DNA of 64,000 nt from a virus, in the IMG/VR virus record IMGVR_UViG_3300045988_159790, one strand, 5' to 3'. How positions within the stretch are numbered: position 1 is the stretch's first letter; the number at the start of each line of letters is the position of its first letter. The notes under the pieces were generated by a model. The model was not told the DNA's origin, searched no databases, and saw only the letters and a list, made by a program, of their open reading frames with translations. A program made the position numbers and the translations under genes. Below are positions 39,786 through 40,655 of this stretch, piece by piece.

Positions 39786-40655
39786 TTAATCTCCTACATA
39801 TACTAATTTACCAATATATTCTCTACCTTCACCCTTGAAAATAGGAATATTTGTATCAATAATCCACTTATTTGCTGATTTAGAAGTATCTCTTAAATAC
39901 ACATCTGCGGTAATACCATTAGATTCAATAACAATCTTATTTTTTACACAGCAGCTTCCTCTCTTCTGATAAGTCGGTAAATCGTTCCAATTAACACCTT
40001 TAGTCATAAGCATATCTTGGATGTCACTGCATGATTTATCCTGTAATTCTTTCTGAGAGAAATAAGCCTGACCTACCATCTGAACCGAATTACAAGAAGC
40101 GTCCAACTGCCGCCAATAGATAAGATTAGTTACTTCTTCTTTTGGAATATTAAAGCAACGAGCATCAAATATTGCTCCTTTATCAACAGCTTTCATTAAG
40201 GTTTTTAAATACTCATCTTCATATGTCCATTCAGTTTTACCATATCTAGCTTCTTCTCCGGCTATTGAAAATGTATAATTTACAACATTTTTATTTAAAA
40301 ATTTATTAAAAGCCATTGTCGCCATACTTGCAGGAACACTACAAAGCTTTTCTACTCGATAATCAAACCATGCTTCTGTTGTTAATGTTTGATAATCAAC
40401 TAAGATTAAAGTGATTTCATCTGATTGTGTATATCCTAACACGCAACCTTGGATATTCTGACACAGATATTGAGTTGTCTGCTACATTGTTTTAATTAAT
40501 ACTTCATCAAAAGGTCGTTTAAAACCTTGTGTAAAGGTATGAAATGCCTTGCCATCAATTCTAATAGCAACTGGCATTCTCTTTACTAACTTAGTATCTG
40601 GAACTGCTTCATAAAATGTTTTCATGCGTGTTCCAAGTTCATCTCTAATACTCAT
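39786..40655 (-). CDS. Thg1-like protein (tRNA 3-prime to 5-prime nucleotidyltransferase) interrupted by one in-frame TAG at 40482-40484
   Basis: ATG at 40655 with AAAGGAG RBS; N-part MSIRDELGTRMKTFYEAVPDTKLVKRMPVAIRIDGKAFHTFTQGFKRPFDEVLIKTM then TAG then same frame QTTQYLCQNIQGCVLGYTQSDEITLIL...LIYWRQLDASCNSVQ... matching Thg1 motifs RIDGRNFHKF, YGQSDEYSF, WRQxDCHINN; track ORF 39786..40442 is the post-TAG part (GTG start artefact). Confidence 0.6.

Follow-up and report, generated by a model that had tools for sequence, protein, structure and literature searches.

The 64,000-nucleotide stretch of viral DNA deposited in IMG/VR as IMGVR_UViG_3300045988_159790 (hereafter the window, i.e., the whole stretch that was analysed) contains a gene for a Thg1-like protein (TLP) whose reading frame is interrupted by one in-frame TAG, and the question raised by this locus is whether the phage reads that codon as an amino acid or whether the gene has been damaged. 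An original prediction on the same DNA had recognized a Thg1-like frame broken by the single TAG at 40482-40484 and starting at ATG 40655 behind an AAAGGAG ribosome-binding site; it had placed the codon at a non-conserved position, had taken the conservation of both halves as a sign that the gene is functional, and had proposed either that the stop is read through or suppressed, perhaps with the help of a phage tRNA, or that a nonsense mutation occurred very recently. The analysis described here favours the last of these with good confidence: it is quite likely that a C>T change (CAG>TAG) very recently created a nonsense polymorphism in a TLP gene that is accessory and dispensable, without any recoding of the codon.

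The description of the gene itself holds. Translation of the minus strand gives a frame running from ATG 40655 to a terminal TAA at 39786, in which the TAG is the sole internal stop; the AAAGGAG lies at 40667..40661, and the peptides that had been quoted on either side of the stop are exact. The Pfam family Thg1 (PF04446) matches amino acids (aa) 10-171, across the TAG (E = 9e-30, 103.7 bits, with a cut-off of 29.2), and the TLP of Bacillus thuringiensis (BtTLP, PDB 4KGK) matches both halves (E = 1.2e-56, aa 5-122 and 161-287). Since the former match spans the stop and the latter covers both of its sides, the frame is far beyond what might be expected by chance. The active-site carboxylates D34, D79, and E80 align with D30, D75, and E76 of BtTLP, the corresponding residues of hTHG1 being D29, D76, and E77; the roles assigned to the BtTLP residues, including E12 and R28, are those of the published active site (PMC3701042). 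The C-terminal TLP domain is also present (aa 161-287 versus BtTLP 126-239, domain E = 1e-22). The HINNLYN anticodon-recognition motif marks eukaryotic Thg1; at the corresponding site the window protein reads WRQLDASCNSVQ, similar to the WRQQDASKNSIS of BtTLP, and it is thus of the TLP type, without HINNLYN.

The bacterial TLPs, and BtTLP (PDB 4KGK/4KGM) in particular, are therefore like the window protein in their full-length homology, in the Thg1 domain, and in the aligned catalytic residues, whereas an extra 35-40 aa between residues ~123 and 160 distinguishes the window TLP from BtTLP. Genes annotated as tRNA-His guanylyltransferase in Bacillus, Fusobacterium, and Staphylococcus phages (Fnu1, FADO, phage G, and others) encode proteins to which the window TLP is 43-45% identical. 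What separates the window allele from the known TLPs is its premature TAG, because of which the gene does not specify the full-length enzyme under the standard code. TLPs are described as 3'-5' nucleotidyl-transferases, whose templated 3'-5' addition repairs tRNA 5' ends (PMC3061083, PMC4820378).

The TAG falls after E16, R32, and the metal-binding D34 and before S78, D79, and E80, and with a stop at codon 58 the window allele has no uninterrupted open reading frame (ORF) for the whole enzyme. Translation would be expected to stop after residue 57. Because the stop separates D34 from D79/E80, neither product is expected to be active; judging from the sequence, neither fragment should be able to hold a complete active site, and an allele in which D34 is cut off from D79/E80 would be null or a severe hypomorph. 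We infer that in vivo only a truncated, inactive protein is made and that the phage tolerates this loss rather than compensating for it. As for the surroundings of the codon, the predicted RNA structure downstream of it is nothing unusual (minimum free energy of -17.5 kcal/mol versus a shuffle mean of -16.0, z = -0.55 over 106 nt), and since the sequence downstream of the TAG is the same as in the CAG allele, nothing has evolved there to promote readthrough. A scan for promoters and terminators near the TLP gene gave nothing exceeding the shuffled expectation.

The origin of the TAG can be read from the closest strains, which were recovered by exact-protein look-ups. In two of them, L086 (ERR11570316) and L089 (ERR11570637), which are 99.7-99.9% identical to the window (L086 being 99.91% identical over 14.8 kb), the 870-nt gene differs from that of the window at one base, C versus T at 40484. 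The C allele is present in seven contigs with identical 57-nt flanks (L084, L086, L087, L089, L090, L102, and L103); the T allele is present in L081/L083 (ERZ27250556) and L082 (ERR636396), whose gene is the same as that of the window, TAG included. Two short matches among JGI metagenome contigs both carry CAG, and no exact match to the TAG allele was found in IMG/VR. At a greater distance, the orthologues of 80 IMG/VR contigs (90-185 kb), 61-74% identical to the window TLP, have a sense codon for Gln at codon 58 in all 80 cases (67 CAG and 13 CAA), while the more distant copies in bacterial genome assemblies (n = 46) have Gln in 34 cases, Asn in 7, and other residues in 5; in BtTLP, the aligned residue is Trp. 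Codon 58 thus varies only across the wide family; within the phage group it is invariant, and it is not the non-conserved position of the original prediction.

These comparisons establish the mutation, its direction (from CAG to TAG), and its youth; a single C>T transition at 40484 turned the ancestral CAG into TAG. A very recent nonsense mutation, one of the explanations initially offered, is therefore strongly supported, the nearest strains being one base apart and the outgroups all having CAG or CAA. The same data undo the argument that both halves are conserved and the gene therefore functional: both halves still match the intact allele exactly, and they look conserved because too little time has passed since the mutation for decay to become apparent. 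The in-frame TAG is indeed aligned with Gln in the homologues; a CAG>TAG mutation accounts for this alignment equally well as recoding does. Moreover, the TAG is restricted to one strain-level clade, the other relatives having CAG, CAA, or another sense codon, and the stop is thus not conserved in the manner of a readthrough codon.

The clade carrying the TAG can be characterized further. The allele is present in at least two sequencing runs and in several assemblies, and the exact 57-aa and 218-aa products are on record on 6-8 contigs (ENA, Logan, and JGI); these contigs may trace to few individuals and, judging from how the runs and samples are named, to one or two studies. Within 13.4 kb, seven changes are specific to the clade, namely the TAG, the single-nucleotide polymorphisms at 44395, 42010, and 34888, the insertion of TT at 42279-80 (in an intergenic T-run), and the insertions of T at 35343 and of A at 33594, the last two being both found in three assemblies. 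Three of the seven (the TAG and the insertions at 35343 and 33594) break reading frames. Such a pattern is that of a young clone in which accessory genes harbor lesions that are neutral or slightly deleterious.

The loss of the TLP is also seen in other members of the phage group. In a sister lineage (L098-L101; at least four samples, a 150-kb genome being among its members) the gene is a pseudogene with a frameshift: at positions 10001-10730 of L098, an 80-aa N-terminal stub is left, its N-terminus being 95% identical, and residues ~79-139, which include the S-D-E core, have been deleted. Decayed fragments in related phages, which the original prediction had named as evidence that would speak against a functional gene, do therefore exist, in the form of an internal deletion accompanied by a frameshift. 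In addition, the 155-kb IMG/VR contig L053 (the same as L111) carries a separate CAG>TAG at TLP codon 17 (10049-10051), a site at which five contigs with identical 44-nt flanks carry CAG. This codon-17 TAG is a singleton, which could represent either true variation or a mistake in the assembly. On these sequences, at least three independent events (two nonsense mutations and one deletion) appear to have inactivated the TLP gene, and the TAG allele of the window would persist because the TLP provides an accessory function that can be lost in this phage group. When the window proteins were screened against all the fetched loci, the only other internal nonsense codon was a TGG>TGA at codon 31 in L084 (~13387), in the orthologue of the window gene at 37262-37798. 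The latter encodes a 178-aa hypothetical protein, which is called as 122 aa in L084.

Elsewhere in the inspected part of the genome, TAG is not treated as a sense codon. The genome was viewed over ~120 of its ~145 kb (~85%), the window being extended along the near-identical 145,040-bp contig ERZ27250556:k119_273532 by 10 kb past each end and by two further steps (contig up to 108,588), and the tail module being taken from near-identical contigs. The window genes are all located on the minus strand, and the stops used by 70 of them are TAA (53), TGA (11), and TAG (6); since TAG ends six of the 70 genes, it serves as a terminator. If TAG is read as sense, the two halves of the TLP gene are the only substantial ORFs of the window that merge, in agreement with the earlier statement that no other long gene needs TAG recoding. 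The tail-module ORFs (1812, 877, 859, 763, 634, and 559 aa, in the near-identical contigs) are intact in the standard code, and so are the endolysin and the tail-spike-like genes, without any TAG split; over the ~120 kb examined, long tail genes included, no other TAG-split gene was found. The alignment of the window proteins with all the fetched loci (118,514 aligned codons) disclosed an in-frame TAG in the TLP gene only. A global recoding of TAG, TGA, or TAA was rejected on the basis of ORF merging and stop-codon use.

The tRNA complement points in the same direction. ARAGORN recognizes 23 tRNAs in the window, arranged in two groups (46.2-47.0 kb and 57.9-63.9 kb), 20 of which pass the Rfam threshold; the 10 kb past the high end of the window add a tRNA-Met and a tRNA-Asn(GUU) and then no more, for a total of 25 phage tRNAs, and no tRNA of any kind is found in the further steps, in the low-end extension, or in the tail module. 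An anticodon CUA, UUA, or UCA was found by ARAGORN neither among the 25 phage tRNAs nor elsewhere in the ~120 kb, and the same search on the 80 IMG/VR loci and on 47 genome loci was likewise negative. The idea that the TAG is read through or suppressed, be it by a phage tRNA or otherwise, thus finds no support, given the absence of these anticodons from the ~120 kb, the six TAG terminators, the lack of other TAG-split genes, and the lack of a stimulatory structure.

Some observations do weigh against a recent nonsense mutation in a dispensable gene. The TLP is intact in 79 of the 80 IMG/VR orthologues and in all 47 genome-borne ones, so that it is normally kept by selection; since it has been inactivated at least three times all the same, its function is conditional, and a conditional function fits an accessory role in tRNA maintenance. 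The TAG allele was recorded on 6-8 contigs and its exact CAG counterpart in the same strain on 1-2, so that the TAG allele is not being quickly purged, although the carriers may come from few individuals. The base following the TAG (+4) is C, which is rare after the genuine stops (1/70) and represents a weak termination context in E. coli. Both nonsense events in the gene are CAG>TAG; a random nonsense mutation in the TLP gene would be of this type in 6-21% of cases, depending on the transition bias, or in ~33% if only GC>AT transitions are considered, and two of two has a p of 0.3-11% under the mutational null (a post hoc calculation). Moreover, CAG>TAG is the one nonsense type for which a near-cognate tRNA-Gln(CUG) would restore the wild type. 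Its double occurrence is most simply explained by mutation bias in a genome of 31% GC, survivorship being the alternative. Finally, ~20-25 kb of the genome lie outside the inspected stretches.

Other explanations of the TAG have to be weighed against these data. A sequencing or assembly error at 40484, which the difference of just one base from the nearest strains might evoke, is hardly credible, since the T is also present in ENA ERZ27250556, in Logan ERR636396, and in JGI/IMG contigs, lies outside any homopolymer, and is linked to the other clade-specific variants; an allele shared by several assemblies and runs is not the error of a single one. Just as little credit can be given to a two-piece enzyme, in which the 57-aa product and a 218-aa product restarted at GTG 40442 would form an active split TLP: even though both ORFs are predicted by gene callers, the 218-aa remnant being listed as a separate gene in public assemblies, and a weak AAGG precedes the GTG, 4 nt upstream, a restart at this codon would leave out residues 58-71 as well, the catalytic carboxylates would be on separate chains, and the arrangement arose with a single mutation and is found in none of the relatives, so that nothing has selected for the split. 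Very slightly less improbable, but still quite difficult to sustain, is a dedicated suppression of the code-15 type, in which a phage suppressor tRNA(CUA) would insert Gln at TAG, as happens in several gut phages, the crAss-like ones among them. Precedents for TAG>Gln recoding by means of suppressor tRNAs are known from gut phages (PMC9523058, PMC10879173, bioRxiv 10.1101/2021.08.26.457843), with which the window phage shares the gut origin, the in-frame TAG at a Gln of the homologues, and the many tRNAs, and the ~20-25 kb mentioned above might harbor such a gene. However, it differs from them in having one in-frame TAG in ~120 kb, no suppressor found among the tRNAs, TAG in use as a terminator, late genes (tail and endolysin) that are not recoded, and nearest strains with CAG. 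As a consequence for annotation, the 57-aa and 218-aa ORFs are to be recorded as one disrupted TLP gene, neither as two genes nor as a recoded one, and the genome should carry no alternative-code flag.

A leaky stop deserves more attention, even though it too is unlikely. It would involve the same mutation, but with a hypomorphic outcome: tRNA-Gln(CUG) would read UAG as Gln, and a small fraction of the product would be the exact wild-type enzyme, given that Gln is the residue of all 80 relatives. Both tRNA-Gln(CUG) and tRNA-Gln(UUG) are encoded by the phage, a small wild-type share could suffice for catalytic tRNA repair, and the near-cognate insertion of Gln at UAG, through low-frequency misreading by tRNA-Gln among others, has been documented in E. 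coli (PMC4333366). The C following the TAG, avoided by the genuine stops, the independent CAG>TAG of L053, and the persistence of the allele on 6-8 contigs are in line with this idea. The only other nearby nonsense change, i.e., the TGG>TGA of L084, is likewise of a kind that tRNA-Trp can decode as the original residue. It might even be imagined that the surviving nonsense alleles represent a filtered set (CAG>TAG twice and TGG>TGA once), read back by abundant near-cognate tRNA-Gln(CUG) and tRNA-Trp; we consider this a little more doubtful still. If the stop were leaky, the TAG allele would act as a hypomorph that repairs itself and still yields some authentic TLP, and an amber codon repaired by a near-cognate tRNA-Gln would be a testable intermediate toward TAG>Gln recoding in a tRNA-rich gut phage, Gln-site TAGs being tolerated before a dedicated suppressor is available. 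Nevertheless, bacteria that possess RF1 normally read through UAG at a basal level far under 1%. GC>AT transitions are the mutations most often seen in AT-rich genomes, and all three nonsense changes belong to this class; with such transitions alone considered, the probability of two CAG>TAG events is ~11%; no stimulatory structure exists downstream, and a sister lineage lives with a frank deletion, so that residual activity need not be invoked. A recent nonsense mutation in a dispensable gene, on the other hand, is what is known from ordinary accessory-gene nonsense polymorphisms and pseudogenes of phages, with which the window allele shares the single transition, the strain-level distribution, the linked frameshifts, and the independent lesions in relatives; nothing essential differs, the sole peculiarity being that the lost residue is the one that a near-cognate tRNA would reinsert. 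The features discussed are listed in Table 1.

Table 1. Location of the TLP gene, of its fragments, and of the related features in the window.
Feature	Position	Strand	Description	Evidence
TLP frame	39786..40655	-	289 codons, one interruption	Translation, Pfam, BtTLP match, IMG/VR orthologues
In-frame TAG	40482..40484	-	Codon 58; +4 base C; from CAG (Gln) via C>T transition at 40484	
Shine-Dalgarno sequence	40661..40667	-	AAAGGAG; 5-nt spacer to ATG 40655; overlaps the stop codon of the YqeY-domain gene	
N-terminal fragment	40482..40655	-	57 aa; holds E16, R32, and catalytic D34 (= BtTLP E12, R28, and D30)	ORF calling, 4KGK alignment
C-terminal remnant ORF	39786..40442	-	218 aa from GTG 40442; holds S78, D79, and E80, without D34	ORF calling, 4KGK alignment
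YqeY/GatB-like domain protein (PF09424)	40668..41093	-	141 aa; directly upstream of the TLP gene; syntenic in all close relatives	
Insertion of one T	35343	-	In a T5 run; shifts the frame at the 5' end of the Band_7/SPFH gene, which falls from 530 to 510 aa	TAG-clade specific
Insertion of one A	33594	-	In an A5 run; 114-aa ORF reduced to 37 aa	TAG-clade specific
tRNA-Gln(CUG)	59523..59598	-	Near-cognate for UAG; could insert the wild-type Gln (putative role)	ARAGORN; Rfam tRNA 59.3 bits
tRNA-His(GUG)	46885..46958	-	No encoded G-1 (-1 base T); discriminator A73	ARAGORN, Rfam

As regards the source of this DNA, gene content shows it to be an SPbeta-like phage or prophage of ~145 kb that is rich in tRNAs and infects gut Clostridia/Lachnospiraceae. 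Markers of the SPbeta type (window 1-14050, L104, and L164) comprise the Pfam families YorF, YorH, and YonG_N, a DnaE-type Pol III alpha subunit, and the anaerobic ribonucleotide reductase NrdD; the window also encodes two topoisomerase II subunits, DnaB, RecJ, PhoH, an RNA ligase, and a metallophosphatase. Relatives are located in the genomes of Lacrimispora, Robinsoniella, and Clostridium isolates, and the endolysin has Glucosaminidase and CW_7 domains; both the genomes harboring the relatives and these domains point to a member of the gut Clostridia/Lachnospiraceae as the host. Some records of metagenome-assembled genomes place relatives in Bacteroidales, Absconditabacterales, and other groups, which looks like a binning error. 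The megablast search of the 3 kb around the TLP gene against phage GenBank records gave no match, suggesting that no close cultured relative is present among them.

The TLP gene sits near the RNA ligase and metallophosphatase genes in a phage rich in tRNAs, and its product might have an accessory role in tRNA maintenance, perhaps against host defences that target tRNAs. To our knowledge, no phage TLP has a demonstrated substrate. The tRNA-His(GUG) of the phage is a possible substrate and a possible link to the role of the TLP, although this is speculation. This tRNA begins 2 nt after the discriminator of a tRNA-Pro (46959-47034); its T-1/A73 combination is unlike the G-1:C73 of typical bacterial tRNA-His, and it is conserved alike in lineages with an intact TLP and in those in which the TLP is dead (L098).

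A different region of the window encodes a set of proteins of membrane-scaffold-like type that is unusual in a phage. An 835-aa protein (30729-33236, minus strand) gives matches to the major-vault-protein shoulder and Vault_3 Pfam families and adjoins a Band_7/SPFH protein (33777-35309, minus strand), and a LemA protein is encoded at 38662-39237.

Some of the tRNA calls are also peculiar. The 70-nt 'tRNA-Asn(att)' at 63015-63084 (minus strand) was considered as a suppressor and rejected, since it has a C at position 37 and a weak 4-bp anticodon stem and lies below the Rfam threshold; ARAGORN calls the same element six times among the related loci scanned, and it may be a degenerate or non-canonical tRNA-like sequence. 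The tRNA-Cys at 46256-46337 (minus strand), which is unusually long (82 nt), and the tRNA-Tyr at 60750-60834 (minus strand) are both called by ARAGORN and are below the Rfam gathering score. Lastly, a gene for a GIY-YIG endonuclease is embedded in the tRNA array (61521-62147, minus strand); it is present in L092, L094, and L095 and absent from L093, which has a PDDEXK_5 gene elsewhere in the array, and these genes look like mobile homing-endonuclease insertions among the tRNAs.

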